64,000 nt of DNA from Candidatus Berkiella sp. Its GTDB lineage: Bacteria > Pseudomonadota > Gammaproteobacteria > Berkiellales > Berkiellaceae. The stretch is taken from assembly GCA_050252335.1 (NCBI GenBank), contig JBFWLB010000007.1:2261-66260 (forward strand), given 5' to 3'. Positions 4,124 through 29,344 of the stretch are shown piece after piece. The stretch's first letter is position 1; each line of letters starts with the position of its first letter. A program made the position numbers and the translations under genes. Under the pieces are notes generated by a model. It was given only the letters and a program-made list of their open reading frames with translations, had not been told where the DNA came from and did not search any database.

Positions 4124-5224
4124 CTATATCTTAATTTTGATTTTTTCTTGCGGCATAGCACTTAAAAGCACTCGAATCTCTGCAATAGCGTCAGATAAAC
4201 TAGGTCTATCTTTAGGATCTAGCGCCACCATCCTTCGAACCATTTCACACCAAGGGGTATCAGACTGCAATCTCAATTTTTCTAAAATTTCCTGATAATG
4301 TTGCTGATATGCTTGCTTATAATCAACAAATTTTTTATCTCGATATGCATCAAATACATCTTTAGTTAATAATTCATATAATAACATGCCTGCGGCAAAC
4401 ACCTCTGTTTGTTGCGTAAAACTACAAAAAACTGATGTCTCATCCTGTAAAAATAATTCAGGTGCAATATGTGTACCTCTGATTTGTCCTTGTGCTGGCT
4501 TCTCCATATTATTTTTGAGTGCGCATCCAAAATCAATGATATGTACGGATGAAAGCGTTTCCTCTCTTTTAGGTGAATATAAAATATTCCAGAGATTTAA
4601 GTCTCCATGATAGTAACCAAGGCTATGTAAATTTTGTAATGCTTCTAAAACTTGCAACCCAACTTCAAGGCTTTCTGTGTACGAAGAAAGCATATGATTT
4701 TGCTCATAGAGATTTTGTGCATCCACATAGTCAATAAACAAGTAACGCTTACGCATAGCTTGTGCGTTTGTTCGATATAAAGAACCATGAAATCTGCCCA
4801 AAGCTTTATTGACTTGCTCTTCAAGCATAAGCTGCTCTTGTACTGTATTCTCAATCCGAGTTCGTGCTTTTTCTAGCTTTAACTGAATTTCTGCCTCTTC
4901 TCTCTTTTGCGAAATCAATTTTGAATAATATAACGCTTGGCAATACGCAACTGTATCGTCAATACGCTCTATTTTTACAACCACTGTCTGCTGCGAGTGC
5001 AGATCAAGTGCTTTTTTTACCACGCCATAAGCGCCAGCCCCTAAACGTTTCAGCAATGCAAAATAACGCTCATTATTTGCAATGACAATTGAATGCTCCA
5101 TTGCAGCTGTTGTATCAACATGATTCATACTATCTGCACGCTCAACGACAGGAGAGGCTCGATAACGATGAATTTTTAAGATATCCGGGTAACTATTTTT
5201 AATTTTACGCGCAAACTCGAGCAT
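4124..5224 (-). CDS. Eukaryote-like (Hanks) Ser/Thr protein kinase, candidate effector
   Basis: Gly loop LGAGAYGVV, VVVK, HGDLNLWN, IDFG, GTHIAPE, DPKDRPS. Confidence 0.88.
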   Translation of the reverse strand: MLEFARKIKNSYPDILKIHRYRASPVVERADSMNHVDTTAAMEHSIVIANNERYFALLKRLGAGAYGVVKKALDLHSQQTVVVKIERIDDTVAYCQALYYSKLISQKREEAEIQLKLEKARTRIENTVQEQLMLEEQVNKALGRFHGSLYRTNAQAMRKRYLFIDYVDAQNLYEQNHMLSSYTESLEVGLQVLEALQNLHSLGYYHGDLNLWNILYSPKREETLSSVHIIDFGCALKNNMEKPAQGQIRGTHIAPELFLQDETSVFCSFTQQTEVFAAGMLLYELLTKDVFDAYRDKKFVDYKQAYQQHYQEILEKLRLQSDTPWCEMVRRMVALDPKDRPSLSDAIAEIRVLLSAMPQEKIKIKI

Positions 5225-5412: not shown

Positions 5413-6513
5413 ATGCTAAACGGCACAAATATTTCTAAAGATGCAGAAGAAACAAAGCCAAATGATGATACAAACCCTTATGCCATCGTGCCATATGTAG
5501 CTCAACCATCCATAGCACCTACAATACTTGATGCTGAAGCGGATGCTTCCTTTTTTGCCAAATTTCAATATGGATTCACTTTCTACGCTGTGTCTGTTCT
5601 TCCACGTATGTTACCTATTTTGAAAAATAATCGACCTTGGTGGTCTAATATCATTCCAGGTCTTAAGCTTGGCGCAATTCCCATTGCAGACTGGGAACAT
5701 GGCTCTTTATTATTGGAAGAATCATTCTTAGAAAATAGAAAGCTTGGCTTGATTGTTTCTTGTTGCGGAGATTTTGAATTAAAAGGCAATGGGCTAATCA
5801 CACTCACACCCGTATCACCCCACTTTTGGGTAGAGAAAAATGTCACACATTTACAAGTTAAAATGCGTGACTTTGGTGGCGATGTACCATTAGATCAAAT
5901 TCGTATTGCAGTAGAACAAATGCATCAATACATCCAAAGTGGAAAAACCGCTTATGTGCATTGCAAAGCGGGAAGAGGTCGCAGTGTCGTTATGGTGATT
6001 TGCTATCTCATGCAATTCCTGGATTACACACCTGATGAAGCAATCGCCTTTGTACGAGAGAAACGTCCTGAGATCTCTTTGTCAAAAGCACAATATGATT
6101 TTATTGAACAATACAGAGCAGAATATAGATCTGACCTCACACCACTTTATTCAAAAGCTACGCAACAAGACATGATGCTTCGTCCTTTGCATACATCTCC
6201 TTCTTTTGTAAATGCACCTTCTTGGATCGCAAGCACGCTTTGGTATATTGTGACGCTCTTTAATCGCAAGACCATTGACCAACATTGCCGAACCTTGGAA
6301 ACCTATTTAATCCAAGATTTTAGCGCGCTATTAAGAAATTTAAATGCAGGCCAAATACGAACTTTGCATGCAAGTCTGACCGGACAAAGGCCTTATACAC
6401 AAGATCTCGTTTGGTATTACCCCATTTATGCAGCAGGACAAGCAGCCAGAAACAACAACGCGCCACAGATCGAAGAGCTTACTTTAGAATTAGATAAGAA
6501 ATTAAAACTATAA
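5413..6513 (+). CDS. Dual-specificity/PTPMT1-like phosphatase with C-terminal extension
   Basis: CX5R motif HCKAGRGRS; WWSNIIPGLKLGAIP resembles the PTPMT1 N-terminal region; DFGG acid loop. Confidence 0.85.
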   Translation: MLNGTNISKDAEETKPNDDTNPYAIVPYVAQPSIAPTILDAEADASFFAKFQYGFTFYAVSVLPRMLPILKNNRPWWSNIIPGLKLGAIPIADWEHGSLLLEESFLENRKLGLIVSCCGDFELKGNGLITLTPVSPHFWVEKNVTHLQVKMRDFGGDVPLDQIRIAVEQMHQYIQSGKTAYVHCKAGRGRSVVMVICYLMQFLDYTPDEAIAFVREKRPEISLSKAQYDFIEQYRAEYRSDLTPLYSKATQQDMMLRPLHTSPSFVNAPSWIASTLWYIVTLFNRKTIDQHCRTLETYLIQDFSALLRNLNAGQIRTLHASLTGQRPYTQDLVWYYPIYAAGQAARNNNAPQIEELTLELDKKLKL

Positions 6514-9548: not shown

Positions 9549-9663
9549 AAAGTCTGTATCACTATACCAAGGCTTCAATATAGAATCGTTCATAATAACC
9601 AACATGTTTACAGCTATAATACAAACAGGTTAGAAATAAGATAATTTAAAAAAGCTGGATAGC

Positions 9664-9837
9664 TTATCTTTTCTTAGGTGTTGTTGCATTTTGGCGATCA
9701 CGTTCTTTACGCACACTCTCGCGCTCTCTATCACGCCTTTTTTCACGCTCATGGTCATGATCATGACCTGTTTCTTCTTTATGATAGTGATGACTTTCTG
9801 TTCGCTCATCATGATCAGGAATATTGCGATTGCCCAT
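9664..9837 (-). CDS. 57-aa His-rich, highly charged small protein (not in ORF track)
   Basis: Hand-translated MGNRNIPDHDERTESHHYHKEETGHDHDHEREKRRDRERESVRKERDRQNATTPKKR*; SD AAGGA upstream. Confidence 0.68.
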   Translation of the reverse strand: MGNRNIPDHDERTESHHYHKEETGHDHDHEREKRRDRERESVRKERDRQNATTPKKR

Positions 9838-9969
9838 AACCGTCCTTTCCCCATATAAATTACACTTACTATTTATATCGTCATTTAAAGGATTTATTAA
9901 AGAGGATAATTAAAGCGTCAAAAAAGAGCCGCAAATATACAGCTTGTTAATTTGCACAGATATTTGAGA

Positions 9970-10557
9970 TTATCGATACAGATAAATGGTGAAATCATGA
10001 GGCATATAATCTTGCCTTAATACTACATTTGAAGTAATCTTCTTACAAAATTCAAAAACACTCCTTGGATCTGGATAAAATATTTCTGCCTCTTTTTCTA
10101 TCGCAAAAGCACTCAAACTATTAAAAGCGACTCCCTTTTTAGAACATAAAAAGAGCTTTTCAATTGTACTTTGCATAGAAGGCCAGTTTACAAAAGTAAA
10201 AATCCCACTTGCAATAACATAATCATATGCGGCATTCTGCATGGAATCCAAAACATTGGTTTCAAAGTCAAATAAGGGATAACGCTTTTTAGAGGCAACA
10301 ATCATTTGATCAACGGTATCAATACCTTTGTATAAACCACTAAATTGATTACTTAGTAAATAATCAATCAAGTGCCCTAAACCGCAACCAACATCTAAGA
10401 TTGAAGATTTAAAAAAATCTTCAGCAATTTTGCACAATACTTCAAACCTGATACGCTGAGATTCTGCACTTGCCCACTTTACACCACGATGATCAAAAGG
10501 ATAAGCCTTAGCGCTCTCAAAATATATAGCATTATTCCGAGTAATCAATTCAGTCAT
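9970..10557 (-). CDS. Class I SAM-dependent methyltransferase
   Basis: SILDVGCGLG motif I, YKGID, YDYVIASGIF. Confidence 0.88.
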   Translation of the reverse strand: MTELITRNNAIYFESAKAYPFDHRGVKWASAESQRIRFEVLCKIAEDFFKSSILDVGCGLGHLIDYLLSNQFSGLYKGIDTVDQMIVASKKRYPLFDFETNVLDSMQNAAYDYVIASGIFTFVNWPSMQSTIEKLFLCSKKGVAFNSLSAFAIEKEAEIFYPDPRSVFEFCKKITSNVVLRQDYMPHDFTIYLYR

Positions 10558-10587: not shown

Positions 10588-11640
10588 TTAGCTTCTTTTG
10601 CAGTATCTTTTTGATATGGTTTCTTTAGAAAAATATTCAAATCCCAATGGATCTAGATCTTCTAAATAGTATTGATTAATCTTCTGCATCATCTTGCCAA
10701 ATTGACTTTTCTTAAATTTGCCAAAGTTACCTGAACTGATACTGGATGTACTTTTACGAAATGCCTCTTTTTCACTTTCATCTAAATCTATGAAAAGAGA
10801 AGATACAACATCTGATATTTTCATTCTGAGTGTATTTGTGCCAGTTTCATTGATAGCGCGCGCTTTGGTTAAAATCATATGTAATGCAACAAAACGAGAA
10901 AGCTTTGTCGATTCTTTTCTAGATGATAATAAGCTATTTAATGTACCCAATGAGTCAAAATTTATATCTTGAAATTTAAGTGCTAATTTATCATAACGTG
11001 TTTGCAATATTTGCATAATTTCTGAGCAAATCCCTGCATTTGTTATCATTTCTTCTGAAGATTCTACAAGTGACTTTTTTGATTTTTTTTTGACCACAGA
11101 AAAATGTGGTAGCATTTCTGCTATACCATAGTATTTCTTGCATTCATCAAACATATGTGCAATTAAAAATTCAATATGATCTCCACTTTTGGCAGAGATC
11201 TCTATTGCAGGCAATCCAAGTTTTGACGCCATGATACCTAATTCTACTCTTTTTACCTTCCACTCTACTTCTGAGATATCAGATTTAGCAATAAGCAGAA
11301 CTTTATAGATTGTATCTCCTATATATCTATTTGTATCGTTCAACCAAAATTCTGCATTCTGCACGGATGCCTTGTCGCAAGGATCAACAACCAATAATAC
11401 AGCATGCATGCCCTTTGGATACAAAATGGCATTCACTCTACTAATACCTTCCGATGGGACAAAATGAAAACACAATCTGATATCTTTATGCACATGCATC
11501 TGACCTTGTGCAAAATCATCTGCTAATAATTCATTATATTGTCCCTCTACCATCCTTTGAATGAGATGCTTCTTACCAACCTTAGGGTCTCCAGCAAGAT
11601 ATACATTAAAGAAAAGCTCTCTAGGTCCAGATACACTCAT
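10588..11640 (-). CDS. Rab/Ras-like small GTPase domain (degenerate) fused to an unknown C-terminal domain
   Basis: GDPKVGK P-loop, GMHAVLLVVDPCDKAS, AKSD, EISAKSG align by eye to the Rab fold. Confidence 0.8.
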   Translation of the reverse strand: MSVSGPRELFFNVYLAGDPKVGKKHLIQRMVEGQYNELLADDFAQGQMHVHKDIRLCFHFVPSEGISRVNAILYPKGMHAVLLVVDPCDKASVQNAEFWLNDTNRYIGDTIYKVLLIAKSDISEVEWKVKRVELGIMASKLGLPAIEISAKSGDHIEFLIAHMFDECKKYYGIAEMLPHFSVVKKKSKKSLVESSEEMITNAGICSEIMQILQTRYDKLALKFQDINFDSLGTLNSLLSSRKESTKLSRFVALHMILTKARAINETGTNTLRMKISDVVSSLFIDLDESEKEAFRKSTSSISSGNFGKFKKSQFGKMMQKINQYYLEDLDPLGFEYFSKETISKRYCKRS

Positions 11641-11696: not shown

Positions 11697-12389
11697 TTAA
11701 TTTGGAGTCGGCAATTTATTCAAACAATTTTCTACTTTTTGTAATGTCATTTTCACAAAAAGATCCTCATCATCATGTTCAAAATATTCCTCATCTCCAT
11801 AGAGTGCCTTCATCCACTCTTTTGTTAAGTATTGTGGGCTATATATTTCTGAAATTGTGCAATATGAAATGTAATTTGGATGCTCTTTGTTATATACCGA
11901 TAGTTGATATATGTAGGCGGTGCCTTTACTCCTCTTGGCCTCATGCATCCACTTCATCACGGGTGCAGATAAACTTATCTCTCCAAAATAAATAGGTGTT
12001 TTTAGAATTTCCCAACCCGCTTCTTTCAAAGCTCTTCCAATAGATTCACCAGATAGAATCTTTTGATCATGCACGGTACGCAATAGTTCAGGAATAGGCG
12101 AAACATAATCAACAACTGCAAAAGTTCTCATGATTTTCTGTTTATCATGTGTGGAATATAAATTTGATATACGGCTGTCTGGGAAAATATCACTACATGC
12201 ATTAATGGTTTCCACACCATAGTTACCAAAAAAATGCTCAATACGTTCACTATTTAATTTGGGTTTTAATGCTGTTGCTGTTTTATCATTCGGTGAAGGC
12301 AAAGAAGTAGCACTTAGCATGATTGGAGAAATGAGCGCTAAACAAAAAACAGAGGCAGATATATATTTATTGATAATTTTTGTACGCAT
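11697..12389 (-). CDS. Hypothetical exported protein
   Basis: 230-aa ORF with N-terminal signal-peptide-like segment; no recognised family. Confidence 0.7.
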   Translation of the reverse strand: MRTKIINKYISASVFCLALISPIMLSATSLPSPNDKTATALKPKLNSERIEHFFGNYGVETINACSDIFPDSRISNLYSTHDKQKIMRTFAVVDYVSPIPELLRTVHDQKILSGESIGRALKEAGWEILKTPIYFGEISLSAPVMKWMHEAKRSKGTAYIYQLSVYNKEHPNYISYCTISEIYSPQYLTKEWMKALYGDEEYFEHDDEDLFVKMTLQKVENCLNKLPTPN

Positions 12390-12457: not shown

Positions 12458-12520
12458 CTTTAAAATTCAACCAAACAAAATTGTCATCCAACTTACTTTT
12501 TGTTTGGTTGAATTTTAAAG
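12458..12520. repeat. Perfect 23-bp inverted repeat, 17-nt loop
   Basis: ctttaaaattcaaccaaacaaaa (12458-12480) / ttttgtttggttgaattttaaag (12498-12520). Confidence 0.9.
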
Positions 12521-12702: not shown

Positions 12703-13179
12703 ATGAAACCTAAAAAGAGCAACACAGAGATAAGCAGCCTAGAAGCACATATTGGCTTTTGGTTGAGACTCGTTTCTAACCACGTTTCTTATGCATTTGC
12801 ACGCAAACTGGATGCCAGTGGTGTTACCGTGGCTGAATGGGTGGTGTTACGAGAAATGTATGGTTATGAGGCAGCTATGACTTCTCCAAGCACTGTTGCT
12901 ACGCTTACAGGCCTCACCAGAGGAGCCGTATCCAAACTGATTGATAGACTTCTCAATAAACAATTAGTCACACGCACAGAATCTAACGATGATAGACGTT
13001 TTCAAAATATTCAACTTACCAAAGAGGCGATTCGCCTTGTACCCAAACTTACCGCACTTGCAGATGAAAATGATGAAGCTTTCTTCTCAATGCTAAGCAG
13101 TGCAGAACAAAATACGCTGAAAAAAATTCTTAAAAAAACCGCTCACTTTCATCAACTAAAAAAGATACCTATAACATAG
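12703..13179 (+). CDS. MarR family transcriptional regulator
   Basis: GVTVAEWVVL, GLTRGAVSKLIDRL, DDRRFQNIQLT. Confidence 0.92.
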   Translation: MKPKKSNTEISSLEAHIGFWLRLVSNHVSYAFARKLDASGVTVAEWVVLREMYGYEAAMTSPSTVATLTGLTRGAVSKLIDRLLNKQLVTRTESNDDRRFQNIQLTKEAIRLVPKLTALADENDEAFFSMLSSAEQNTLKKILKKTAHFHQLKKIPIT

Positions 13180-14162: not shown

Positions 14163-14498
14163 TTATTTCTTTCTTCTTCGCTCTCTTGGAGGCATTGGAG
14201 ACTGGGACTGGGACTGAGGCTGAGGCTGAGGCTGAGGCTGAGGCTGAGAAGATATACTAATCATTGGATTACGAGAATGTAAAAAAGAAAGTAAAACAGC
14301 AGGAATAGGTCTTGCTAACACATTTTCTTGATTTACCGGCTCATTTCCTTGGTTCTCCAGAAGATTTCCAATATCTCGTCTCATATTTCCTCTATTTGCA
14401 CGAACAGGTACAAATGCTTGCAACAATTCACGCTGTGCTACTGGATCCATACCTGGTAGAACATCTTCTACATTTACTATTTGAGTTTTATGCGACAT
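14163..14498 (-). CDS. Hypothetical 111-aa protein with (PQ)n tract and basic C-terminus
   Basis: ATG 14498 with SD GGAGA; ends SQPQPQPQPQPQSQSQSPMPPRERRRKK. Confidence 0.6.
   Translation of the reverse strand: MSHKTQIVNVEDVLPGMDPVAQRELLQAFVPVRANRGNMRRDIGNLLENQGNEPVNQENVLARPIPAVLLSFLHSRNPMISISSQPQPQPQPQPQSQSQSPMPPRERRRKK
14196..14249. repeat. Hexamer tandem repeat (ctgagg x5 plus variants)
   Basis: ctgagg at 14214, 14220, 14226, 14232, 14238, flanked by ctggga x2 and ctgaga; in-frame in the ORF. Confidence 0.9.
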
Positions 14499-14623
14499 AT
14501 TTTTCATCTCCAAATATAAAAAAATTGAATATTTCGGTGTTTTTAAAAAAAAACAAGATAACATATATAATAAAAATTTATTAGATGATATAATTAGAAC
14601 AAATTGTTTGATTAAGTAATATA

Positions 14624-15511
14624 ATGATTGATGAGTTACGTGCACTTGCAATCTTTGCCAAAACGGTAGAGGCTGGCTCATTTCGAACAGGCGCTAAAGA
14701 GCTAAAGTTATCCCCTTCTGTTGTCAGCCATCATATTTCCCAGCTAGAAGAGCGATTAGGCGCCACTTTACTGTATCGCTCCACACGTCATCTTTCTCTA
14801 ACGCAAGATGGCGAACAACTCTTTCTTGCGGCAAAAGCAATGGTAGAGGCTGCTGAAAGTGGACTGAATACCATTATGCATCAATCTCCTGAACCTTCAG
14901 GCAAATTAGTGGTTACTATTCCTGCTGCACTCACCCGCAGTGCATTAGTTAAAGATCTGATCGATTTTGCCAAGACTTTTCCTAAAATCGGATTATCTAT
15001 TAGCTTTACAGATCTACAAGAAGATTTGATCCGTCAAGGAATCGATCTTGCAATACGCATCGGGGATTTACAAAATAATACATTAAAGGCGAAAAAACTT
15101 TCTGAGATGAAGCGCACGCTGATTGTGGCGCCAAGTTATCTGAAAGGCCGGAAAAATCCAAAGAAGCCACAAGAGCTCATTGACTTGGACTGGATTGGAT
15201 TGAAAACACGCCCTGATCAGCGGACATTAGTAAATAGCGCTGGAAAAAGCTTTGAGATCAATTTTAAGCCTAGAATTGTTGTTGATAGTCTGGATGCTGT
15301 TCGAGAATTTGCCATCGCGGGCTTAGGGCTTGCCACCCCTCCCACCTTTCTCGTTGAAGAAGATATATGTCAAGGTTTGCTTGTTGAGCCCTTACCTGAA
15401 TGGGGTATCGAGTCACTGGGTGTTTACGCGGTTTGGCCCCCCAATGCCTCTAAAGAGTCTTTAACCTTCCGACTGATCGATTTCTTAGAAATGCGAAAAA
15501 GCGGTTTGTAA
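14624..15511 (+). CDS. LysR family transcriptional regulator
   Basis: FAKTVEAGSF...LSPSVVSHHISQLEERLG-TLLYRSTR; DLAIRIG. Confidence 0.95.
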   Translation: MIDELRALAIFAKTVEAGSFRTGAKELKLSPSVVSHHISQLEERLGATLLYRSTRHLSLTQDGEQLFLAAKAMVEAAESGLNTIMHQSPEPSGKLVVTIPAALTRSALVKDLIDFAKTFPKIGLSISFTDLQEDLIRQGIDLAIRIGDLQNNTLKAKKLSEMKRTLIVAPSYLKGRKNPKKPQELIDLDWIGLKTRPDQRTLVNSAGKSFEINFKPRIVVDSLDAVREFAIAGLGLATPPTFLVEEDICQGLLVEPLPEWGIESLGVYAVWPPNASKESLTFRLIDFLEMRKSGL

Positions 15512-16459: not shown

Positions 16460-16948
16460 TGTTTTGTCTTTTCCTCAAGTTTGATGTTTCACTATACTAT
16501 CGATTATACAAAAATACATACCTAAATAGATTTCTTAATACCCATTTATTGGCTTATCTATCTAAAAAAATGCTGTGATTTTAAAAAGTTCTACCATATA
16601 AAATTTATGATAAGCATCAAGTAGGCATAAGATATTATAAATCAAAACCCTTAGCTAACAAGGCTTCTAAGATGATGTTGGATTTGCTTGACAATGAATT
16701 TTCTGTGACAGCAGGAATTGAACGATCATATTAATCAATCATGTGTATAGGATGGTAGGGACAATATTCTAAAATGGAATTCCATGAATATAAAATGAGT
16801 AATTACATCATTTAATCAGTGTAAACACGGGCTCAAAGAGGGTTGGATGGGGCGATCAAACACATAAATATTGACAATACAGATTTCTAACTATAATCTT
16901 TCTGAAGTTATAAAACGCTCAATATTTATTAAAATAGGAACTTTGCAA

Positions 16949-17902
16949 ATGCCTTTCAATCTTGGTTTAGCACGCGTAACCACTGAATTTACCATTAATG
17001 AGCAGGATAATATGCAAGCAAATCCTGAAGATAAAACAGCTTTGGTAAATGCGTTATTGGAAAATAAAAATTTGCTAAAAGTAAATAATCTTGGGCATAG
17101 CTTTGACGAACAGGCAAGAAAAAGACTAGATATACATTTAACAAGTAACACTCGCGCACTTCTTGACCATACTAAGATAGAAGTTATTTTTTACAGCAAT
17201 GATAATACTAAAAAGACTCGTAAAGATAACTTTCGTTTTGATGATCCTGCCTTTTATCAAGCTAAAAAGATTATATTCTTAAAATTTAGACTTGCTGAAG
17301 GGGTTAGTGAAGCAGCTTTAAAGCTTGCAACATTAAAATCCTTTATGTTAAAAGAACTCCTAAAATGTCATCATTTGCAATACTGTTATTTTTGGGGATT
17401 AATAAATAGACCCACGCCATTCTTAAATCATCAACAAGAAAATTTATTAGAGCGAATTATATATCGAAACAAAAGATATCTTTCAAAATATCAATTCGAT
17501 TGGCCTCGTTGGACAGGAATAGCATTTGGCGTGGTAGGCTTAAGTGCCCTCTTTTTACCTGGGTTTGGTATATTAAAAGGCTTACTTTCAGCAGCTACTC
17601 TTTTTGTAGGTGGTGTTAATGTAGGGGCTGCTATTTCATATTTTCGTGAACAATTTTTATTTAAAGTTGGCTATAATAAGCTGCAAGACTTAAAAGAAAA
17701 CAAAATCCCTAATGATGAATCAATAAAAGAATGTTTAATAGCTGGCCAGAATTCGAAACATTGGAAGGGATATTTCAATAGCTTTTTGAATTGGAAAAGC
17801 TATTCACCCAAAAATTACCCCGCTTATGCAGCGGGACTCTATACCGGCGTTCATCGTTTAAAGGATCAGAAAGAAGCTATTAAGAAATTGCGTCCTAATT
17901 AA
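16949..17902 (+). CDS. Hypothetical membrane protein, effector-like orphan
   Basis: ATG 16949 with SD; Gly-rich double hydrophobic segment in the C-terminal half; no family recognised. Confidence 0.6.
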   Translation: MPFNLGLARVTTEFTINEQDNMQANPEDKTALVNALLENKNLLKVNNLGHSFDEQARKRLDIHLTSNTRALLDHTKIEVIFYSNDNTKKTRKDNFRFDDPAFYQAKKIIFLKFRLAEGVSEAALKLATLKSFMLKELLKCHHLQYCYFWGLINRPTPFLNHQQENLLERIIYRNKRYLSKYQFDWPRWTGIAFGVVGLSALFLPGFGILKGLLSAATLFVGGVNVGAAISYFREQFLFKVGYNKLQDLKENKIPNDESIKECLIAGQNSKHWKGYFNSFLNWKSYSPKNYPAYAAGLYTGVHRLKDQKEAIKKLRPN

Positions 17903-18296: not shown

Positions 18297-19817
18297 CTAT
18301 TCCATTTCTACCAATCCGCCTAAAAAATGACAAAATGGTTCAATATTGTGCCTAACACTAGCTTCCTCCAACGCCACCATATAAGCGGTACGTTGCTCAA
18401 CTGGAATAATAGTCCATGAATAGCCACCTGATGCACACATAGTGTTCATCAAGAAGCGACCAATCCGTCCATTACCATCCATATAGGGATGTATATATAC
18501 AAAAAAGAAATGACCAAGCACAATTCTGACAGATGCTTCTTTCTCTTCTTTCAATAAATCGAAAAAAGCCGGCATTAGCTCTCTAACTGCAGCAACATTT
18601 GGTGGAACATGGTGAGACCGGCGTATATAAACCTGGCTTCCTCGATAACCAGCTAAATCTGTTCTTTGCAATATATTTGCTGTAACACTTGGACCAAATA
18701 ACTCACGGTACCAATCGCCATGGGACTGCCATACAACTTGACCTGCATTTTCCCCTTGAATAATTTTTTCTATACTTTGCCTAACTACTTGAAAAGCTTG
18801 CCAATATCCACGCGCAGCTAATGCATCTTTTTGCTTTTGATCATTTTCATTTGTGTCCGGGTTCCAAGTCCCGCTCCTTACCTTTTCAATAAGGTCTAGA
18901 CTAACACGATAACCTTCGATAGAAAGAGAGTGATATGCATCCTGTACATATTTCTCATCAACATTGCTTAAATATGCTGTTACATTCAAAGATTGTAGTG
19001 GAGGGGGTGGAAAATTTCTGAGAATGACTTCCCGCATTTCATGCCACAATATTTTAATGCGACTAACGCAAGGAGATTCTGATCGTTGAGATAATAAAAT
19101 GGGTGCGGCATTTTCAAATGGATCACTTTCTCGCACATCATATTCTGCTAACTGCATAGCTTTAACGATATCATCAGCTATTTTATCTCGACCGATGTTT
19201 CTAAACGCCCCAGCTAAACGTCCTGCAATTGTACTGTGTCCGCCTTCTAGTAAAAGGGATAAAACTTGTGATGCATCATGAATCATAGCAACACTAGCTC
19301 TTGCATCTGTTGGATATTGTCTAAAAAATTTCTGAGAACAATTTAACAATGCTGGAACGAAAGAGTAAATTCTTAGCCCCTTTTTTTCTTCAGTTTCTTT
19401 TTGCTCTGGAAGATTATATCTTACGTTTAAAAATGAGGTTTCAAAGGGCAATGAAATGATTTTATTATCACCTTTTGTAGAATACACTAATAATTGTTTG
19501 GGTACTGTCCAATTATCTGCGTGCAATAATAAGGATTGCTCTGGCGACAAACACCATTCTTGGTTAAATCGTTGATTTAAATAAGATGCACAAAAATCCC
19601 AATACGAAGCATACCAAGCCGTGCTTTCTCCGGTGGATTCGTCTGGGCGCGATGGTATATACCACCCCTTCATCACTTCTTGGATAAAACCATTTTTTTG
19701 CAGGCGCTCTCTATGCACACGAGTCAAATCCCGAGATCTAATTGCCACAAGTCCTTGGTCTTGTAATACTTTTAACGATTCAAGTGACTGAGCTAATTTC
19801 TCGGATGGGGTTGCCAT
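18297..19817 (-). CDS. Fic-domain protein with extended N-terminus
   Basis: HPYMDGNGRIGR Fic motif; inhibitory SLSIEG (S/TxxxEG) motif. Confidence 0.92.
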   Translation of the reverse strand: MATPSEKLAQSLESLKVLQDQGLVAIRSRDLTRVHRERLQKNGFIQEVMKGWYIPSRPDESTGESTAWYASYWDFCASYLNQRFNQEWCLSPEQSLLLHADNWTVPKQLLVYSTKGDNKIISLPFETSFLNVRYNLPEQKETEEKKGLRIYSFVPALLNCSQKFFRQYPTDARASVAMIHDASQVLSLLLEGGHSTIAGRLAGAFRNIGRDKIADDIVKAMQLAEYDVRESDPFENAAPILLSQRSESPCVSRIKILWHEMREVILRNFPPPPLQSLNVTAYLSNVDEKYVQDAYHSLSIEGYRVSLDLIEKVRSGTWNPDTNENDQKQKDALAARGYWQAFQVVRQSIEKIIQGENAGQVVWQSHGDWYRELFGPSVTANILQRTDLAGYRGSQVYIRRSHHVPPNVAAVRELMPAFFDLLKEEKEASVRIVLGHFFFVYIHPYMDGNGRIGRFLMNTMCASGGYSWTIIPVEQRTAYMVALEEASVRHNIEPFCHFLGGLVEME

Positions 19818-20408: not shown

Positions 20409-23400
20409 GTGAAGTTCAACGAAGATTCAAGAGTGAAGATACCCACAATCCTGCATTTGATGCGGTTGGGTTATGGCTATCTGTCTCTAAAAGACCCAAA
20501 GCTCAAACGGGACGAATCTACAAACATCTTTACAGAAATCTTTTTACAAAGCATAAAGCGAATCAACCCTTCCCTAAACGACCTAGAAGCCCAGCAGCTA
20601 CTCTCTGACGTCTCGCTTACCCTAGAGAACGAAGATCTAGGCAAAGCCTTCTATGAAAAGCTCATCGACAAATCTGGTGTTCGCCTCATAGACTTAGAAG
20701 ACTTTAATAACAACTCATTTAATGTTGTCACTGAGCTAACCTACAAAAAAGACGAAGAGGAATTCCGACCGGATATTACTCTGCTCATTAATGGCCTGCC
20801 ATTAGCATTTATAGAAGTTAAGCGACCAAACAACCGCGATGGTATATTAGCTGAGCACAAGCGTATACAAACACGCTTTCAGAACAAGAAGTTTAGAAAT
20901 TTCATTAACATTACCCAGCTAATGGTGTTCTCCAATAATATGGAGTATGACGACAGCACGCCCAGGCCTATTGAGGGGGCATTTTATGCTACGCCATCTT
21001 ATAGCAAGCCCACATTCAATTATTTTCGTGAAGAGCATGTTTTTGACTTAAATGTTTTACTTTCAGATGTGGATGACGAAGAAGAAACTGCATTACTTAA
21101 AGATACTAACTTGCTAAGCATAAAGCAGTCACCAGAATTTGCAAATAACAAAAGTCCTGATACCCCCACAAACCGTATTTGTACTTCACTATTCCAGCGT
21201 GAACGAATTGCTTTTTTACTTGAGTTTGGCTTGGCCTATGTGAAAAAACGAATAGGTGTTGAAAAACATATAATGCGTTATCCGCAAATTTTCGCCACTA
21301 TGGCTATAGAGCAAAAACTTTCTGAGGGTGTAAAAAAAGGCATTATCTGGCACACGCAAGGTAGTGGTAAAACAGCATTGGCTTACTACAATGTAAAATA
21401 TCTCTCTGACTACTTTCAGAATCAAAACATTATCGCTAAATTCTATTTTATTGTTGACAGACTCGATTTGCTTGTTCAAGCAGGCCGTGAGTTTAGATCG
21501 CGTGGATTAGTTGTACACAACATCAATTCAAAAGAAGATTTTGCCAAGGACATCAAAAAAACTACGGCCATACACAACGTTAGTGGCAAAGCTGAAATTA
21601 CAGTCGTCAATATTCAAAAATTTAAGGATGATCCAAACGTTATAAAAAGCGGTGACTATAACGTCAATATTCAGCGAGTATTCTTTTTAGATGAGGTTCA
21701 TCGTAGCTATAATCCAAAAGGCAGCTTTTTAGCCAATTTGGAGCAAGCCGACCGTGATGCAATCAAGATTGGTTTAACTGGTACACCGCTGTTGGGTGAA
21801 GAATATAACTCCAAATTGTTGTTCGGTAATTACATTCACAAATACTATTACAACGCATCCATTAAAGATGGGTATACACTGCGATTGATTCGTGAGGACA
21901 TTGAAACCAGTTATAAACTTGATTTGCAAAAGACTCTCGCAGCAATCTATGAAGACACTGAGATTCTAAAAGGGAGCGGCAACAAAAAACTAGTTTATGC
22001 ACACAAAAGATTTGTAGAGCCAATGCTCGATTACATCATAAAGGATTTTGAGCAAGCCCGTATATCCTTCAACGATAACACTATAGGCGGTATGGTTATA
22101 TGTGATTCTTCAGAGCAAGCTAAAATGATGTTTGATATTTTTCAAGCACAATACGCTAAACCACAAGGCCTAGAGGAGCAGTCAGGATCTGATAACTTGA
22201 CCTCAGAACCAGCCTCATATAAAGCCAAGGAGAAACTAAATAGCCAGGTTACTAATGCCGCCGTTATCTTGCACGATGTTGAAACTAAGGATGAACGCAA
22301 AAAACTAGTCGAAGACTTCAAAGAAGGTAAAATTGACCTCTTGTTCGTATATAACATGTTGCTTACCGGATTCGACTCTCCACGCCTTAAAAAGCTATAC
22401 ATAGGGCGTGTAATTAAAGCCCACAATCTATTGCAAGCCCTTACGCGTGTAAACCGTACCTATCACAATTTTAACTATGGCTATGTGGTGGACTTTGCCG
22501 ATATAGAAAGTGAATTTGAGAAAACAAACAGAGACTATTTTAGAGAACTTCAATCTGAGCTAGGTGATGAAATTGAGCACTATAGTAATCTGTTTAAATC
22601 TCAAGATGAAATCTTAAAAGAAATACAAGAGATCAAAGAAACCCTATTCCATTTTGACACCACTAATGCCGAAATATTTTCGGGTCAAATTTCGCAGATC
22701 AATTCCCGTAGTGAAATGTTAAAAATCACACGCGCCTTAAACAATGCCAAGAGCCTTTATAATCTTATTCGCTTGGCAGGCGATTATGAAATGCTTGAAA
22801 GGCTAGACTTTCAAATGCTCACTGTATTATCTAGGGAGGCAGATAGGCGTCTAGCCCTTATCAATACCAAAGAAGCGTTAGAAAGTAGCGTTGATACCTC
22901 AAACTTGCTTAACGTTGCCTTAGAAGATGTTATCTTTGCGTTCACCAAAGTCAGTGAAGAAGAAATGATTTTAGCTGATGAGCTAAAAAACACGCTTCAA
23001 AGAACACGTGAAGGCCTAGGTGAGAATTTTGATCCCCGTGATCCTGAGTTTGTTTCACTAAAAGAAGAACTTGAACGTCTATTTAAGAAGAAAAACTTAA
23101 GCGAGATCACCAAAGAGCAGATGGAAAGCAACATTAAGGCTTTAAATGATATATATAAACGGGCCAAAGAGCTAGAAAGAAAAAACCAGCTATTAAGGGC
23201 TAAATATGACAATGATGAAAAATATGCTCGTTTACATAAACGTCTCATGGAAAAAGATCCTTTAACGGATAGTGAGAGCAAACTTTTTGAGGCCCTAAAA
23301 AGCTTAAAAACTGAAGTTGACAATAAAATACAACAGAACTCAAAAATGTTAGAAAATGAAAACTATGTTAAAAAAATGGTTACTAAGCTTGTTATCAATC

Positions 23401-23516
23401 AGTTCAGAAACAAGCACATACCTTTAACCCCAGATGCAACCAGACGCATCAACGGTTTAGTGGTAAATGAATATATGAACGAATACTATGGGGGAGCAGG
23501 TACAGCTCGTCTGTAA
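20409..23516 (+). CDS. hsdR: Type I restriction enzyme subunit R
   Basis: RPD...IEVK nuclease motif, HTQGSGKT Walker A, DEVH, GLTGTP, MLLTGFD. Confidence 0.95.
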   Translation: MKFNEDSRVKIPTILHLMRLGYGYLSLKDPKLKRDESTNIFTEIFLQSIKRINPSLNDLEAQQLLSDVSLTLENEDLGKAFYEKLIDKSGVRLIDLEDFNNNSFNVVTELTYKKDEEEFRPDITLLINGLPLAFIEVKRPNNRDGILAEHKRIQTRFQNKKFRNFINITQLMVFSNNMEYDDSTPRPIEGAFYATPSYSKPTFNYFREEHVFDLNVLLSDVDDEEETALLKDTNLLSIKQSPEFANNKSPDTPTNRICTSLFQRERIAFLLEFGLAYVKKRIGVEKHIMRYPQIFATMAIEQKLSEGVKKGIIWHTQGSGKTALAYYNVKYLSDYFQNQNIIAKFYFIVDRLDLLVQAGREFRSRGLVVHNINSKEDFAKDIKKTTAIHNVSGKAEITVVNIQKFKDDPNVIKSGDYNVNIQRVFFLDEVHRSYNPKGSFLANLEQADRDAIKIGLTGTPLLGEEYNSKLLFGNYIHKYYYNASIKDGYTLRLIREDIETSYKLDLQKTLAAIYEDTEILKGSGNKKLVYAHKRFVEPMLDYIIKDFEQARISFNDNTIGGMVICDSSEQAKMMFDIFQAQYAKPQGLEEQSGSDNLTSEPASYKAKEKLNSQVTNAAVILHDVETKDERKKLVEDFKEGKIDLLFVYNMLLTGFDSPRLKKLYIGRVIKAHNLLQALTRVNRTYHNFNYGYVVDFADIESEFEKTNRDYFRELQSELGDEIEHYSNLFKSQDEILKEIQEIKETLFHFDTTNAEIFSGQISQINSRSEMLKITRALNNAKSLYNLIRLAGDYEMLERLDFQMLTVLSREADRRLALINTKEALESSVDTSNLLNVALEDVIFAFTKVSEEEMILADELKNTLQRTREGLGENFDPRDPEFVSLKEELERLFKKKNLSEITKEQMESNIKALNDIYKRAKELERKNQLLRAKYDNDEKYARLHKRLMEKDPLTDSESKLFEALKSLKTEVDNKIQQNSKMLENENYVKKMVTKLVINQFRNKHIPLTPDATRRINGLVVNEYMNEYYGGAGTARL

Positions 23517-23563
23517 TCTAACCTTGAAGCCTGGTTTCAGGCCATCTACCTAGAGAAGAAAAA

Positions 23564-25198
23564 ATGACAGAATCTAAACAATTTGAACAACAAACCAAAA
23601 TGCTCATAGATGATTTAAAAACTGTCTGCGCCAACTATGGTTTGGGCAACGATGGTAATGAATTTAAAATTATCGCTCAAGTATTTTTGTATAAATTTCT
23701 GAACGACAAGTTCGTTTATGAAATTAAGCAATTAGACAAAAAGATCGCCAAGGCAAAAAAATGGGAAGATGCGCTTAACAAATTAGATAAAGATGAATAT
23801 GAAATGTTAATGATGCAGCTAAGCGAAAGTACAGCTCATATAAGGCAAGAGCATTTTATTTCAACTTTATTTGCAAAGCAAAACGAACCAAATTTTGCTG
23901 ATATTTTTGATAACACGTTAGTTGATATTGCCCGTGACAATAGTGATATCTTCTCAGTGCTCACGGCAGGTGGTGAAAAAATAGTACTATTTGATACTTT
24001 AAGTAGATATGTCACTGACAACCGCGATGATTTTTGTAGGGCTATCATTAATAAACTCACAGGCTTTAGCTTCGAACATATTTTTCATCAAAAGTTTGAT
24101 TTTTATGCCACTATTTTTGAGTATCTGATTAAAGATTACAATACTAACAGTGGCGGAAAATATGCAGAATACTTCACCCCACATGCTGTATCTAAAATTA
24201 TGGCGCGTTGCTTAGTCCCCAAAAAGAAAGGGGCAAAAGTTCAAAATGTGACCTGTTACGATCCTTCAGCAGGCTCTGGCACCTTGCTAATGAACCTAGC
24301 CCATGCGATAGGCGAAGACAAATGCACCATCTATTCTCAAGATATCTCACAGAAATCCTCAAGTTTATTGCGTTTAAATCTAATCCTTAACGATTTAGTA
24401 CACTCCATACACAATATAATTCAGGGTAACACTTTACGGGATCCCTTCCATAAAAAGGATAATGGCGAGTTAGCACAATTTGACTATATCGTTTCAAATC
24501 CGCCATTTAAACTCGACTTTTCTGGCTACCGTGATGAACTAGAAAGCAAAGAAAATCATGACCGGTTTTTTGCAGGTGTCCCCAGTGTACCGAAAAAGAA
24601 AAAAGAGTCCATGGCAATTTATTTAATGTTCCTACAGCATATTATCTATTCATTAAAGGCTAAAGGTAAGGCCGCTGTTGTTGTACCAACAGGGTTTATT
24701 ACCGCTCAAAGTGGAATCGATAAAGCTATTCGACAAAAACTGGTAGATGAGAAAATGCTTGCAGGGGTGGTAAGTATGCCTTCAAATATTTTTGCCAATA
24801 CTGGTACCAATGTTTCGATTATATTTATCGATAAAACAAATAAAGAAGATGTGGTATTGATAGATGCCTCAAATCTTGGTGAAACCATTAAGGATGGCAA
24901 AAATCAAAAAACTGTTTTGTCACATGCTGAAGAAGATCAGATTATTAACACGTTTAATGATAAAAAGCCGGTTGATGATTTCTCAGTGGTGGTTAGCTAT
25001 GCCGATATTGCATCGGAAAACTATTCACTAAGTGCAGGACAGTATTTTGAGGTAAAAATCGAGCATGTAGATATTTCACAAAAGGAATTCTTGAATAGGC
25101 TGAATGAGTTTGAGGTGAACATTAGACAGTTATTTAAAGATTCTAAAAGCCTAGAAAATGAGATTATTCAAAATATTAAAGGATTAAATTTTAAATGA
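23564..25198 (+). CDS. hsdM: Type I R-M N6-adenine methyltransferase subunit M
   Basis: EYFTP, YDPSAGSG motif I, NPPF motif IV. Confidence 0.95.
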   Translation: MTESKQFEQQTKMLIDDLKTVCANYGLGNDGNEFKIIAQVFLYKFLNDKFVYEIKQLDKKIAKAKKWEDALNKLDKDEYEMLMMQLSESTAHIRQEHFISTLFAKQNEPNFADIFDNTLVDIARDNSDIFSVLTAGGEKIVLFDTLSRYVTDNRDDFCRAIINKLTGFSFEHIFHQKFDFYATIFEYLIKDYNTNSGGKYAEYFTPHAVSKIMARCLVPKKKGAKVQNVTCYDPSAGSGTLLMNLAHAIGEDKCTIYSQDISQKSSSLLRLNLILNDLVHSIHNIIQGNTLRDPFHKKDNGELAQFDYIVSNPPFKLDFSGYRDELESKENHDRFFAGVPSVPKKKKESMAIYLMFLQHIIYSLKAKGKAAVVVPTGFITAQSGIDKAIRQKLVDEKMLAGVVSMPSNIFANTGTNVSIIFIDKTNKEDVVLIDASNLGETIKDGKNQKTVLSHAEEDQIINTFNDKKPVDDFSVVVSYADIASENYSLSAGQYFEVKIEHVDISQKEFLNRLNEFEVNIRQLFKDSKSLENEIIQNIKGLNFK

Positions 25199-26502
25199 AA
25201 TTGTTAAAATTAAAATCTGTTTCAAATGTTATAACGGGGTTTCCATTTAAAGGTAATGAATATACTGATCGAGGAGTTAGGACAGTTAGAGGTGAAAATG
25301 TTACTGAAGGTAGGCTTCGTTGGGATTCTACAAAACATTGGAATCAACCTTTTGATAAATTTGAGGAATACAGTTTAAAAGCTGACGATATAGTAGTTGG
25401 CATGGATGGGTCAAAAGTTGGGAAAAATAAGGCTAGAATATTTGAAAAAGACTTACCGCTATTACTTGCTCAACGAGTCGCATGTATAAGAGCTAAAAAA
25501 GGAACTGACCAAGTTTTTTTATATTACTGTATAAATAATAATAGATTTGAGGATTATGTTTACCGTATTCAAACTGGATCGGCTGTACCCCATATTAGCA
25601 AAACTCAAATTGAAGAATATTCAATTCCAGCCTTTGATCTTGACACGCAAAAAAAATTATCTAAGACTCTTTCTGATCTAGACAGAAAAATAGAAATCAA
25701 CAACAAAATCAACACCAAACTAGAAGCCATGGCCAAGCTCATCTACGAATATTGGTTTGTACAATTCGACTTCCCTGATGCTAAAGGCAAACCTTACAAA
25801 TCCTCTGGTGGCAAAATGGTTTATAACGAAGCGCTAAAGTATGAAATTCCTGAAGGATGGGAAGCTAAAGAGCTAGCTTCAATATTAAAATGTAATTATT
25901 CTTCAATTGGAAAGAATGGCTCGTTTGATGTGATTGAATATTTGGATACAGGAAGTTTAACAAAGAATGTCGTTAAAGGCACTGAACGAATATATCCTTT
26001 AGAAGATAAAGTACCCAGTAGGGCGAAAAGAATCGTTGGTAAAGATGATATTTTATACTCTACAGTGCGGCCAAACTTGTGCCACTATGGAATAATCAAA
26101 AAACCATTACATAACATGGTGGCTTCAACTGGATTTGCGCAGCTTGCTAGTAGAATAGGCTGGATTAGCAACGATTTAATTTATACGTTTTTAACCTCAC
26201 CTTGGGTTACGAGCAAGTTACACCAAATAGCTACATTATCGGTATCTGCATACCCTTCAATATCACCAAATAATATTTTGGAGTTAAATATAGCTTTACC
26301 AAAAGATAAAAAATTTTTTGAGCCTATCAATTTAATGTTTGCCACAATCTATTCAAAAATTTCACTTAATCAACAAGAGAATATAGAATTGTCCGCGTTA
26401 AGGGACTGGCTCCTCCCCATGCTAATGAACGGGCAAGTTACAGTGAAAGGAACGCACCATAGTAAAAAAGGGAAGTTAAAACATGGCAGCGCAATACTCT
26501 AA
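25195..26502 (+). CDS. hsdS: Type I R-M specificity subunit S
   Basis: Two TRDs separated by the conserved WFVQFDFPD...EIPEGW spacer; LRDWLLPMLMNGQV C-terminal motif; ATGA overlap with hsdM. Confidence 0.93.
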   Translation: MKLLKLKSVSNVITGFPFKGNEYTDRGVRTVRGENVTEGRLRWDSTKHWNQPFDKFEEYSLKADDIVVGMDGSKVGKNKARIFEKDLPLLLAQRVACIRAKKGTDQVFLYYCINNNRFEDYVYRIQTGSAVPHISKTQIEEYSIPAFDLDTQKKLSKTLSDLDRKIEINNKINTKLEAMAKLIYEYWFVQFDFPDAKGKPYKSSGGKMVYNEALKYEIPEGWEAKELASILKCNYSSIGKNGSFDVIEYLDTGSLTKNVVKGTERIYPLEDKVPSRAKRIVGKDDILYSTVRPNLCHYGIIKKPLHNMVASTGFAQLASRIGWISNDLIYTFLTSPWVTSKLHQIATLSVSAYPSISPNNILELNIALPKDKKFFEPINLMFATIYSKISLNQQENIELSALRDWLLPMLMNGQVTVKGTHHSKKGKLKHGSAIL

Positions 26503-27679
26503 CCGTCATTTTTTCAGAAAAACACCGAATTGGTATCTGGCTAAATATTTTGAAGACAAGGGTATTCAGCTTGGCATAAAGGTGTACGAACTACAGGAAA
26601 ATGATGATGAAGCCTTGCAAAATGCCTTGAACCAACTACAGCCCGACCAAATAGCGAGCATCGAAGCAGAGTTTCAAGATGTAAATGCCTTGGCCTGTGA
26701 GGGAGGTATTATAGCTCTGGTTGACGAAGCAAGTTTTCACAATGACCAAGGCTTTATTAAAGAAATTGCTGCTATAGATGGCATGCACGCAAAAGCTATG
26801 TATGCATTTCTCAATAAACCTCAATATTGGCGAGGTGCGGCGATGTTTTTACATGCCGACAATGTAAGTCCATCATATTGGAAGAAACGCAACGATTTCC
26901 TCAATTTACCACCACACCTTGAAAATGATGATACCGACGCTTTTGCCGAAGCAATTAGTGAGTATTTTTCAGGTAAGGAAGGAAGGGGTAAAAATTGTAT
27001 TGTTGAGTCCTATCGCCGCAACCAAAAAGAATATCTCTTTGCTCATCCAGAGGATTTTGGGCAAACCGCTATTGAATGGGTAGGTGGAACTTTAACAAAC
27101 CAAGCGCATCATCCAGCTTTTGAGATTATTTTTGTATACTGTGAAACGGAAGGTTCGCTAGACATATACGCCCCTAGAAATGGGAAAGCAGTACCAGATT
27201 TACAGGCACTATTTGCTAAACATATTTTAAAGCTAGATAGTTTGTCCGAATGGCAAAAGGATCAACGTGTTTATGAGTTAAACACCATATTAGAGAAAGG
27301 TTTTGAATTTAAAATAGAGCCAACGTCAGGCATTTCTAGCGTATTAATCACTAGCCTTCGAGTAACGTTAAAAGAGGATCGAAAAAAGCGCATTATGGTG
27401 GAAGCTGATGCGTATAAAGATGATAAAGCCGTCTTTAGATTACTAGATCGATTGAATTTGCCCCCGTATGACGTAACCCAACTAAGTTTAAAAGTAACCT
27501 TTGAGCCAGTGGGTGGTGCAAAGGCCAAATCTAAGCGAGTAAATATTACTTACCCCAATTCATGTGCGTTGAATCACGATGGCAATGATCTAAAAATACG
27601 CCAAATGCTTGCTCGGTCTGGGCTTGAGCCCAAAGCGGTCGAGGTTAAAACGGTTGAGCCAGAAGCGATAATGGCTTAA
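26483..27679 (+). CDS. Hypothetical island protein (orfA, 398 aa)
   Basis: Long ORF with SD aaggga, overlapping the hsdS end by 20 nt; no family recognised. Confidence 0.8.
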   Translation: MAAQYSNRHFFRKTPNWYLAKYFEDKGIQLGIKVYELQENDDEALQNALNQLQPDQIASIEAEFQDVNALACEGGIIALVDEASFHNDQGFIKEIAAIDGMHAKAMYAFLNKPQYWRGAAMFLHADNVSPSYWKKRNDFLNLPPHLENDDTDAFAEAISEYFSGKEGRGKNCIVESYRRNQKEYLFAHPEDFGQTAIEWVGGTLTNQAHHPAFEIIFVYCETEGSLDIYAPRNGKAVPDLQALFAKHILKLDSLSEWQKDQRVYELNTILEKGFEFKIEPTSGISSVLITSLRVTLKEDRKKRIMVEADAYKDDKAVFRLLDRLNLPPYDVTQLSLKVTFEPVGGAKAKSKRVNITYPNSCALNHDGNDLKIRQMLARSGLEPKAVEVKTVEPEAIMA

Positions 27680-28471: not shown

Positions 28472-28476
28472 AAAAG

Positions 28477-28623: not shown

Positions 28624-28674
28624 CGCCCAATCATCATGGAACCTCATTCCCAGGAACGTTAAAGAGGTTTCAAA

Positions 28675-29314: not shown

Positions 29315-29344
29315 AACAGTGGTCTTAAATAGTGAGTTTAAACA

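Follow-up and report, generated by a model that had tools for sequence, protein, structure and literature searches.

What would an intracellular bacterium gain from a Rab GTPase that has lost the residues with which such proteins sense their nucleotide? The question is raised by a gene on the minus strand of a 64,000-nucleotide stretch of Candidatus Berkiella DNA (contig JBFWLB010000007.1 of assembly GCA_050252335.1, positions 2,261 to 66,260; hereafter the window), whose product joins a Rab-like N-terminal domain to an unrecognised C-terminal region. Members of Berkiella, which belong to the Legionellales sensu lato, are obligately intracellular in amoebae and invade the nucleus of their host. 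The explanation we favour, with a probability of about 0.6, is that the gene encodes a Dot/Icm-delivered, Rab1-shaped pseudo-GTPase that would act by binding rather than by switching, is joined to a new helical domain and is not prenylated. In such a protein, the Rab1-shaped domain would be a constitutive, regulator-independent binding module, with or without a nucleotide as structural cofactor, and the basic helical domain would supply a second binding or targeting function. The Dot/Icm system would deliver the protein into the host cell, where it would interfere with, or exploit, Rab1-dependent membrane traffic at the endoplasmic reticulum (ER) and nuclear envelope; translocation and host target are both inferred. 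The parts of the gene are as follows, in window coordinates; P0007 and P0008 are two distant members of the protein family described below.

10588–11640, minus strand: whole Rab-like gene, 350 codons plus a TAA stop, with an ATG start
11119–11616, minus strand: Rab1-derived G domain, residues 9–174 (Pfam Ras, PDB Rab1B and Rab-only Foldseek matches)
11569–11592, minus strand: P-loop G17-D-P-K-V-G-K-K24, with Lys in place of the Mg2+-binding Ser/Thr
11449–11463, minus strand: degenerate G3 and start of switch II, F60-V-P-S-E64 (Rab1 counterpart D63-T-A-G-Q67)
11278–11289, minus strand: G4, A118-K-S-D121, an NKxD motif without its Asn
11188–11196, minus strand: G5, S149-A-K151, retained by the cookevillensis-like clade, missing from P0007/P0008
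11041–11118, minus strand: linker, residues 175–200, with the polybasic run VKKKSKKS, low model confidence and relaxed constraint (dN/dS 0.31)
10666–11040, minus strand: orphan helical domain, residues 201–325, with conserved motifs LQxRY, STKLSR, DKxAFxxSTSxxSSG and KxSxFxxMxxKI
10591–10665, minus strand: tail, residues 326–350, an acidic-aromatic patch D-x-D-x-x-G-F-E-x-F followed by basic K-x-x-x-K-x-S
10591–10602, minus strand: C347-K-R-S350, the proposed CaaX box, with the Cys codon TGC at 10602–10600; the protein ends RYCKRS

A putative ribosome-binding site (AGGGTGG) lies a few bases 5' of the ATG, the N-terminus MSxSGP is common to all close orthologs, and no paralog of the gene was found elsewhere in the 64-kb window.

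Profile searches assigned the N-terminal domain to the Ras superfamily (Pfam Ras PF00071, residues 15–167, E = 5e-10, 39.6 bits against a cut-off of 21.6), and comparison with PDB sequences narrowed the assignment. A phmmer search of all PDB sequences with the single protein returned Rab1B (E = 6.9e-14) and Rab1A as best matches over residues 9–174, while the family profile matched Rab1B with E = 1.4e-19 and 73.6 bits. The 21 best matches of the profile were all Rab1, followed by Rab26 and yeast Ypt1 at about 53 bits each, some 20 bits lower, and all of the 60 PDB matches listed were Rab/Ypt/Sec4 proteins, which sets the domain nearer to Rab than to the Ras, Rho, Arf or Ran branches. Because Rab1 fills the first 21 places and the other matches score about 20 bits lower, the domain is specifically Rab1-derived, that is, descended from a eukaryotic Rab1/Ypt1-type GTPase; Rab1/Ypt1 (human Rab1B, PDB 4i1o/3nkv) belongs to the same domain family and is its closest sequence relative. 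Identity to Rab1B is 25–28% over about 165 residues, with the beta4-alpha3-beta5 and alpha4-beta6-alpha5 core best kept; by segment it reaches 32–36% in P-loop/alpha1, beta4-alpha3-beta5 and beta6-alpha5, 22% in switch I and 12% in switch II. A first-pass annotation of the window, made from the letters and their open reading frames (ORFs), had aligned the N-terminal ~170 residues with Rab1 by eye, and this alignment holds: its quoted segment GMHAVLLVVDPCDKASVQNAEFWLNDTNRY pairs with Rab1A in the HMMER alignment, and the Pfam and PDB matches lie far beyond chance.

Mapping of the motifs to native Rab1B numbering revealed that the chemistry of the switch has been lost. The P-loop glycines and lysine are retained (G15, G20 and K21 of Rab1B correspond to G17, G22 and K23), but the Mg2+ ligand S22 is replaced by K24, so that G1 reads GDPKVGKK and departs from GxxxxGK[S/T]. 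The switch I threonine of G2, T40, is lost, either aligning with L38 or falling inside a four-residue deletion in switch I, and the G3 motif DTAGQ has become FVPSE, with D63, G66 and the catalytic Q67 replaced by F60, S63 and E64, respectively. In G4, N121-K-S-D124 corresponds to A118-K-S-D121, with Lys and Asp retained and Asn lost, whereas G5 (S151-A-K153, here S149-A150-K151) is intact. The hydrophobic triad retains its Phe and Tyr (F45 and Y77, here F43 and Y74), and its third member, W62, is H59. The motif description given in the first-pass annotation (G1 ending in GKK, no DxxG, AKSD and SAK) is thus borne out in every item. Unlike Rab1/Ypt1, moreover, the protein is bacterial, ends without the CC/CxC geranylgeranylation motif and carries an additional 175-residue region with the orphan helical domain. 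All canonical Mg2+ and gamma-phosphate ligands and the catalytic Gln are replaced; since every metal and gamma-phosphate sensor is gone, a switch driven by guanosine triphosphate (GTP) is very unlikely under the established Ras-superfamily mechanism, and the domain is best read as a pseudo-GTPase that presumably lacks GTPase activity.

The protein belongs to a very small family. The exact sequence is on record from NCBI and Logan, where it lies on a 73.8-kb contig, and its closest named homolog is CC99x_002670 of Candidatus Berkiella cookevillensis, with 87% protein identity; identity at the level of gene DNA is 88.8%, and the source is therefore another Berkiella species, not a Legionella. 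Five clusters at 67–98% identity were found by word-indexed searching among 5.8 billion cluster representatives. When a profile of the C-terminal domain was run with HMMER against 1.84 billion representatives in full, it returned only the family itself, the distant P0007 (288 residues) and one spurious plant protein. The latter, P0006, was rejected as a family member: it is a plant-type pentatricopeptide-repeat/E+/DYW protein that matches the low-complexity FIDLxExxKE only (E = 2.5e-10, in 12 short stretches). Profile searching further added P0008 (290 residues), encoded in a metagenome-assembled genome (MAG) titled 'Uncultured Candidatus Berkiella sp.'. Scanning of a genome contig collection with the single protein gave no match, close relatives apparently being absent or masked there, and the sole match of the profile in that collection was a Berkiella MAG copy of P0008. 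Overall, the family comprises about eight protein clusters in two subfamilies, among 15 billion proteins, and every member with a named organism is from Berkiella; no Legionella protein was among the homologs in the sequence and profile searches. P0007 and P0008 are 27–30% identical to the window protein and share its two-domain architecture, and their neighbours are bacterial housekeeping genes, large orphan proteins and a 1437-residue ankyrin-repeat protein. Close copies of the gene (57–100% of sampled 31-mers) were detected in landfill, aquatic, wastewater, compost, bioreactor and microbial-fuel-cell metagenomes.

Comparison with the B. cookevillensis ortholog by the Nei-Gojobori method (dS 0.39) gave a ratio of nonsynonymous to synonymous substitution rates (dN/dS) of 0.17 for the whole gene, 0.156 for the G domain and 0.133 for the C-terminal domain. 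The linker gave 0.31, the last 25 residues (0.29) evolve at about twice the rate of the two domains, and the neighbouring methyltransferase and 230-residue genes gave 0.095 and 0.086, respectively. With the reading frame intact in every family member, the gene is functional and both domains are under purifying selection. The P-loop itself shares in this constraint: GxxxxGKK is invariant down to 27% identity (GTKNSGKK in P0007, GAPQSGKK in P0008), and since the Lys at the Ser/Thr position never varies, the loop is still under selection. The Y74-P75 pair is likewise invariant down to 27–30% identity. G4, in contrast to the P-loop, drifts from AKSD through AQAD (P0004) and AKAD to TKSE/TKSY (P0007/P0008), and G5 SAK is invariant in the cookevillensis-like clade only; because G4 varies in P0004, P0007 and P0008 and SAK is absent from the latter two, guanine recognition is not conserved family-wide.

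The region that follows the Rab-like domain, noted as unrecognised in the first-pass annotation, indeed has no Pfam or NCBIfam match over residues 176–350. An AlphaFold2 (AF2) model of residues 199–350, built from a seven-sequence alignment that included the distant members, consists of six helices with a predicted local distance difference test score (pLDDT) of 78 and a predicted template modelling score (pTM) of 0.77, its last ~13 residues being predicted as disordered. Foldseek found nothing significant for this model in the PDB (best E 0.92) or BFVD (best E 1.6), and rows naming armadillo, V-ATPase and HEPN folds were rejected as noise, all template modelling (TM) scores being 0.34 or lower. 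The domain is basic (net charge +7), contains 20% Ser/Thr and carries the invariant motifs LQxR, TKxSR, K-x-AF-x-x-ST-x-x-x-SSG and K-x-S-x-F-x-x-M-x-x-KI. One can only guess that it binds or targets as a second module, perhaps with acidic lipids as its ligands. The VKKKSKKS run of the linker resembles a monopartite nuclear localisation signal or a K-Ras-like polybasic membrane patch.

The C-terminus bears on a different account of the protein, proposed in the first-pass annotation, namely a catalytically dead Rab decoy held on host membranes through farnesylation or geranylgeranylation of Cys347 in a CaaX box, which we regard as very improbable. The CKRS ending with Cys at −4 is present as described; it is shared by P0001, the representative of the window protein's cluster at 90% identity or more, and by P0003, and Ser at the X position is compatible with farnesyltransferase. 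The aliphatic positions a1 and a2, however, are occupied by Lys348 and Arg349, and a charged a2 residue is strongly disfavoured by both CaaX prenyltransferases. Among six sequences compared (the window protein and five cluster representatives), the last four residues are CKRS in the window protein, P0001 and P0003, YKLS in B. cookevillensis, SKRS in P0004 and TKKS in P0005; Cys thus occurs in three of the six and is exchanged for Tyr, Ser or Thr through single-base changes, the codon being TGC in the window, TAT in B. cookevillensis and TCT in the P0004 genome. The invariant positions of the tail (K at −7, K at −3 and S at −1) do not include the Cys, and the whole 25-residue tail is absent from P0007 and P0008. 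A Cxxx ending is also unremarkable by chance: with a Cys frequency of 1.2% in the window ORFs, it is expected in about one protein in 80, or about 0.6 of the 47 ORFs of at least 140 residues, and one was observed. The CC/CxC motif by which Rab proteins are prenylated is missing too, the protein having a 175-residue extension with a single, non-conserved Cys at its end. Precedent for the proposal comes from Legionella effectors, which use host CaaX prenylation (PMC13081727; PMC2916131). In those prenylated effectors the CaaX box is highly conserved and its Cys is needed for localisation (PMC13081727), whereas the Berkiella protein shares with AnkB and the Pel proteins the Cys at −4, but in Berkiella this Cys is variable and flanked by Lys-Arg. 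Given the Lys and Arg at the aliphatic positions, the variable Cys, the tail missing from P0007/P0008 and the relaxed dN/dS of the tail, CaaX prenylation is not supported; the loss of canonical catalytic and switch residues survives from the original proposal, the prenyl anchor does not, and the term decoy stays conjectural.

What is conserved in the tail is an acidic-aromatic patch, [ED]D-x-D-x-x-GFE-x-F, about 14–23 residues from the C-terminus and followed by a basic end. Between −11 and −25 the tail, missing in P0007/P0008, has an acidic patch, and its end is basic and contains Ser; a Dot/Icm C-terminal signal or a short linear motif seems to match these features better than a CaaX box does. 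For translocation, lysines at the C-terminus can be indispensable (PMC5506055). A di-lysine ER-retrieval motif (KKxx/KxKxx, as in PMC5506055) was considered and rejected, only the −3 Lys being present and none at −4 or −5, and by eye the GFE[DY]F patch fits none of the FFAT-like, FxDxF or FGDF-type consensus motifs.

The same motif pattern could instead describe a nucleotide-dependent protein with non-canonical chemistry, for example one that binds GTP or GDP independently of Mg2+, with Lys24 standing in for the metal, and that hydrolyses slowly or upon stimulation by a partner, two states being possible. Selection on the phosphate-binding loop, implied by the invariant GxxxxGK and extra Lys, speaks for such a protein, as do the G4 Lys/Asp and G5 SAK kept in the cookevillensis-like clade and the precedent of LegA15, a Legionella effector presented as an atypical GTPase with an unusual mechanism (PMC9757750). 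We nevertheless consider it unlikely, as all three metal and gamma-phosphate ligands and the catalytic Gln are gone, switch I carries a four-residue deletion, the G4 Lys is Gln in P0004, and in P0007/P0008 the G4 Asp is replaced and G5 SAK missing. A further reading, a long shot in our estimate, would be a metal-free Rab1 mimic, in which K24 and the loss of the Mg2+ ligands hold a guanine nucleotide or phosphate ligand without metal or hydrolysis, freezing a Rab1-like surface beyond the reach of host GTPase-activating proteins (GAPs), guanine nucleotide exchange factors (GEFs) or GDP dissociation inhibitor (GDI); fused to the new basic helical fold, it would let Berkiella capture Rab1-dependent ER/nuclear-envelope membrane. 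Were this true, pseudo-GTPases would gain a new biochemical class, and nuclear entry by Berkiella its first functional clue. That the gene is a decaying, functionless relic of an acquired Rab gene is hardly credible: several G motifs are degenerate and the family is tiny and lineage-restricted, but no member has a disrupted frame, dN/dS is 0.17 with a dS of 0.39, motifs are invariant at 27–30% identity, and close copies occur in many types of metagenome. The last alternative, that the protein is not secreted and works inside the bacterium, as some bacterial Ras-like proteins do, is drawn from its immediate neighbours, which are listed below.

11697–12389, minus strand: upstream gene for a 230-residue protein, 56-nt gap to the Rab-like gene
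9970–10557, minus strand: downstream gene for a 195-residue class I S-adenosylmethionine (SAM) methyltransferase, 30-nt gap to the Rab-like gene
9927–9944, minus strand: terminator-like hairpin with a T-run, just past the methyltransferase stop

All four cookevillensis-like genomes have the 230-residue gene, the Rab-like gene and the methyltransferase in this order, although their flanks differ; purifying selection acts on all three genes, and the gaps are short. No terminator-like hairpin was found between the three genes, the one detected following the methyltransferase, and co-transcription is therefore possible. The 230-residue protein has a Sec-type signal peptide by eye and no Pfam or NCBIfam match; its family comprises 16 clusters, none with a Pfam domain, and the sole match with a named organism is a Candidatus Berkiella sp. 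MAG. An intrabacterial partnership of the Rab-like protein with this secreted protein and the methyltransferase would agree with these observations. Neither gene was found near P0007/P0008, which have other neighbours, and no distant 230-residue homolog adjoins any member of the Rab-like family; as the distant members of both families are not linked, the trio is local synteny, and its interpretation as an obligatory functional module was rejected. The closest relatives of the domain are, furthermore, eukaryotic Rab1 proteins, and the ortholog was flagged by an effector predictor, so that an intrabacterial role appears improbable, only marginally more so than the nucleotide-dependent protein described above. 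Upstream of the 230-residue gene, a search by eye for a PmrA-type tandem box found a single TTAAT half-site, which is evidence neither way.

Several results weigh against the Dot/Icm-delivered, Rab1-shaped binding module preferred here. The full-length AF2 model, built from six sequences, has a pLDDT of 45 and recovers only beta1, beta4–6 and alpha3–5. Structure prediction with Foldseek, suggested in the first-pass annotation as a check of the Ras fold, accordingly gave a mixed answer: the matches were Rab-only, but their TM scores did not exceed 0.47, and with so poor a model the Ras fold rests on sequence homology together with weak Foldseek matches. The retained GxxxxGK, G4 Lys/Asp and G5 SAK leave room for nucleotide binding and even for unconventional catalysis. 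Host Rab1 partners contact switch II and the hydrophobic triad; switch II (12% identity) and most of the triad (W62 to H59) are altered here, which weakens the model of a simple decoy that binds Rab1 partners. Conservation and possible co-transcription of the trio, which includes a secreted protein and a methyltransferase, could point to an intrabacterial role, and no RNA-seq runs carrying the gene were found among the sequencing runs with matching 31-mers.

The case for an effector draws on genome context and on earlier literature. B. cookevillensis and B. aquae have been reported to possess a Dot/Icm system (PMC6507137; PMC9803151), and Berkiella is sister to Legionellales sensu stricto (PMC8896642). 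The B. cookevillensis ortholog has been predicted as an effector, bioinformatically only, and the RhoGAP and kinase adjacent to it are in the same prediction list (PMC9803151 S4); a Ras-superfamily effector candidate in Berkiella is therefore already on record. The text of the Berkiella comparative-genomics paper does not mention Rab, Ras or GTPases. No dot/icm genes were seen among the window ORFs scanned. The protein carries a eukaryotic-like domain that is rare in bacteria, being of Rab1 type in a family confined to Berkiella-type contigs, and its candidacy as a host-mimic effector, put forward in the first-pass annotation, is reasonable for a Rab1-type domain in a Legionellales bacterium with a Dot/Icm system. 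In the genus Legionella, 184 small-GTPase-like proteins have been counted, 71 of them Rab, with Rab features conserved; all 16 of the 16 assayed were Dot/Icm-translocated, and that study regards such proteins as quasi unique to the genus (10.1101/350777).

Like those Legionella Rab/Ras effectors, which are likely translocated host mimics often fused to other domains (10.1101/350777), the Berkiella protein contains a Rab domain acquired by an amoeba-associated Dot/Icm bacterium. The Legionella Rab effectors are reported to keep structural features of eukaryotic Rabs, whereas the Berkiella family has lost the G1 Ser, G2 and G3, and its partner domain is an orphan, different from theirs. No paper tying pseudo-GTPases to Legionella-type effectors was found in the literature searched. 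The Mimivirus Rab (PDB 5xc3), which we take to be an otherwise canonical Rab, is another case of a Rab captured by an amoeba-infecting entity and appeared among both the sequence and the fold matches; it has no extra domain, unlike the Berkiella protein, and was crystallised with GDP according to its entry title. The Entamoeba protein EhRabX3 (PDB 5c1s), a Ras-like protein that has lost motifs, was among the PDB matches of the family profile. Eukaryotic pseudo-GTPases such as CENP-M, the pG domains of p190RhoGAP and Rnd/RhoH put the Ras-like fold to use for interaction instead of switching. Compared with these and with EhRabX3, the putative pseudo-GTPase family of Berkiella is bacterial and shows a different pattern of loss, with an invariant Lys at the Walker A Ser/Thr and G4/G5 partly kept.

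The family would represent an independent, specifically Rab1-derived example of a Rab domain outside Legionella, in a sister lineage with nuclear entry. If translocated, it would amount to a natural experiment on a Rab scaffold without a nucleotide switch and offer a handle on Rab1/ER traffic in nuclear invasion. Beyond what was on record, the analysis adds that the domain comes specifically from Rab1, that it is in a pseudo-GTPase state with an invariant GKK P-loop and is joined to an orphan helical domain, and that the family is confined to Berkiella and under purifying selection; it also rejects the CaaX box.

The wider locus is syntenic with that of B. cookevillensis, the shared genes being Pkinase, DSPc, NMT1, Thi4, GNAT, the methyltransferase, the Rab-like gene and the 230-residue gene. 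Just downstream of the Rab-like/methyltransferase pair, B. cookevillensis carries a RhoGAP gene (L001, 12205–13449, 414 residues), and the P0004 genome has one at the same locus, cut by the contig end (L006, 6131–6760); at window positions 9549–9969 and in L007 there is none, nor any tblastn remnant. The RhoGAP, itself a candidate effector directed at small GTPases and the second at this locus, is polymorphic for presence or absence. Three further eukaryotic-like or effector-like genes lie nearby in the window.

4124–5224, minus strand: Ser/Thr protein kinase
5413–6513, plus strand: DSPc phosphatase
18297–19817, minus strand: 506-residue protein with a C-terminal Fic domain

Between a divergent MarR-family gene (12703–13179, plus strand) and the 230-residue gene, positions 12458–12520 hold an inverted repeat whose 23-nt arms match perfectly and are 17 nt apart (CTTTAAAATTCAACCAAACAAAA / TTTTGTTTGGTTGAATTTTAAAG), which could be an operator, a bidirectional terminator or the remnant of a small mobile element. 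A 172-residue ORF without a Pfam match (14163–14681, minus strand) has a (PQ)n/(SQ)n repeat and, after it, a strongly basic PPRERRRKK C-terminus, which resembles a nuclear localisation signal and deserves attention in a bacterium that invades the nucleus. The GC content is about 37–38%, and the rest of the window is ordinary chromosome encoding RecN, AlaRS, a penicillin-binding protein and ManC, together with a type I restriction-modification island. The latter includes HsdR (20409–23516), HsdM (23564–25198), downstream ORFs and a phage-type integrase (31650–32894, minus strand), and with GC risen to 0.40–0.43 the region 20409–32894 is probably a genomic island. Two more ORFs without a Pfam match, at 16871–17902 (plus strand, 343 residues) and 33486–35540 (minus strand, 684 residues), may encode lineage-specific proteins or effector candidates.

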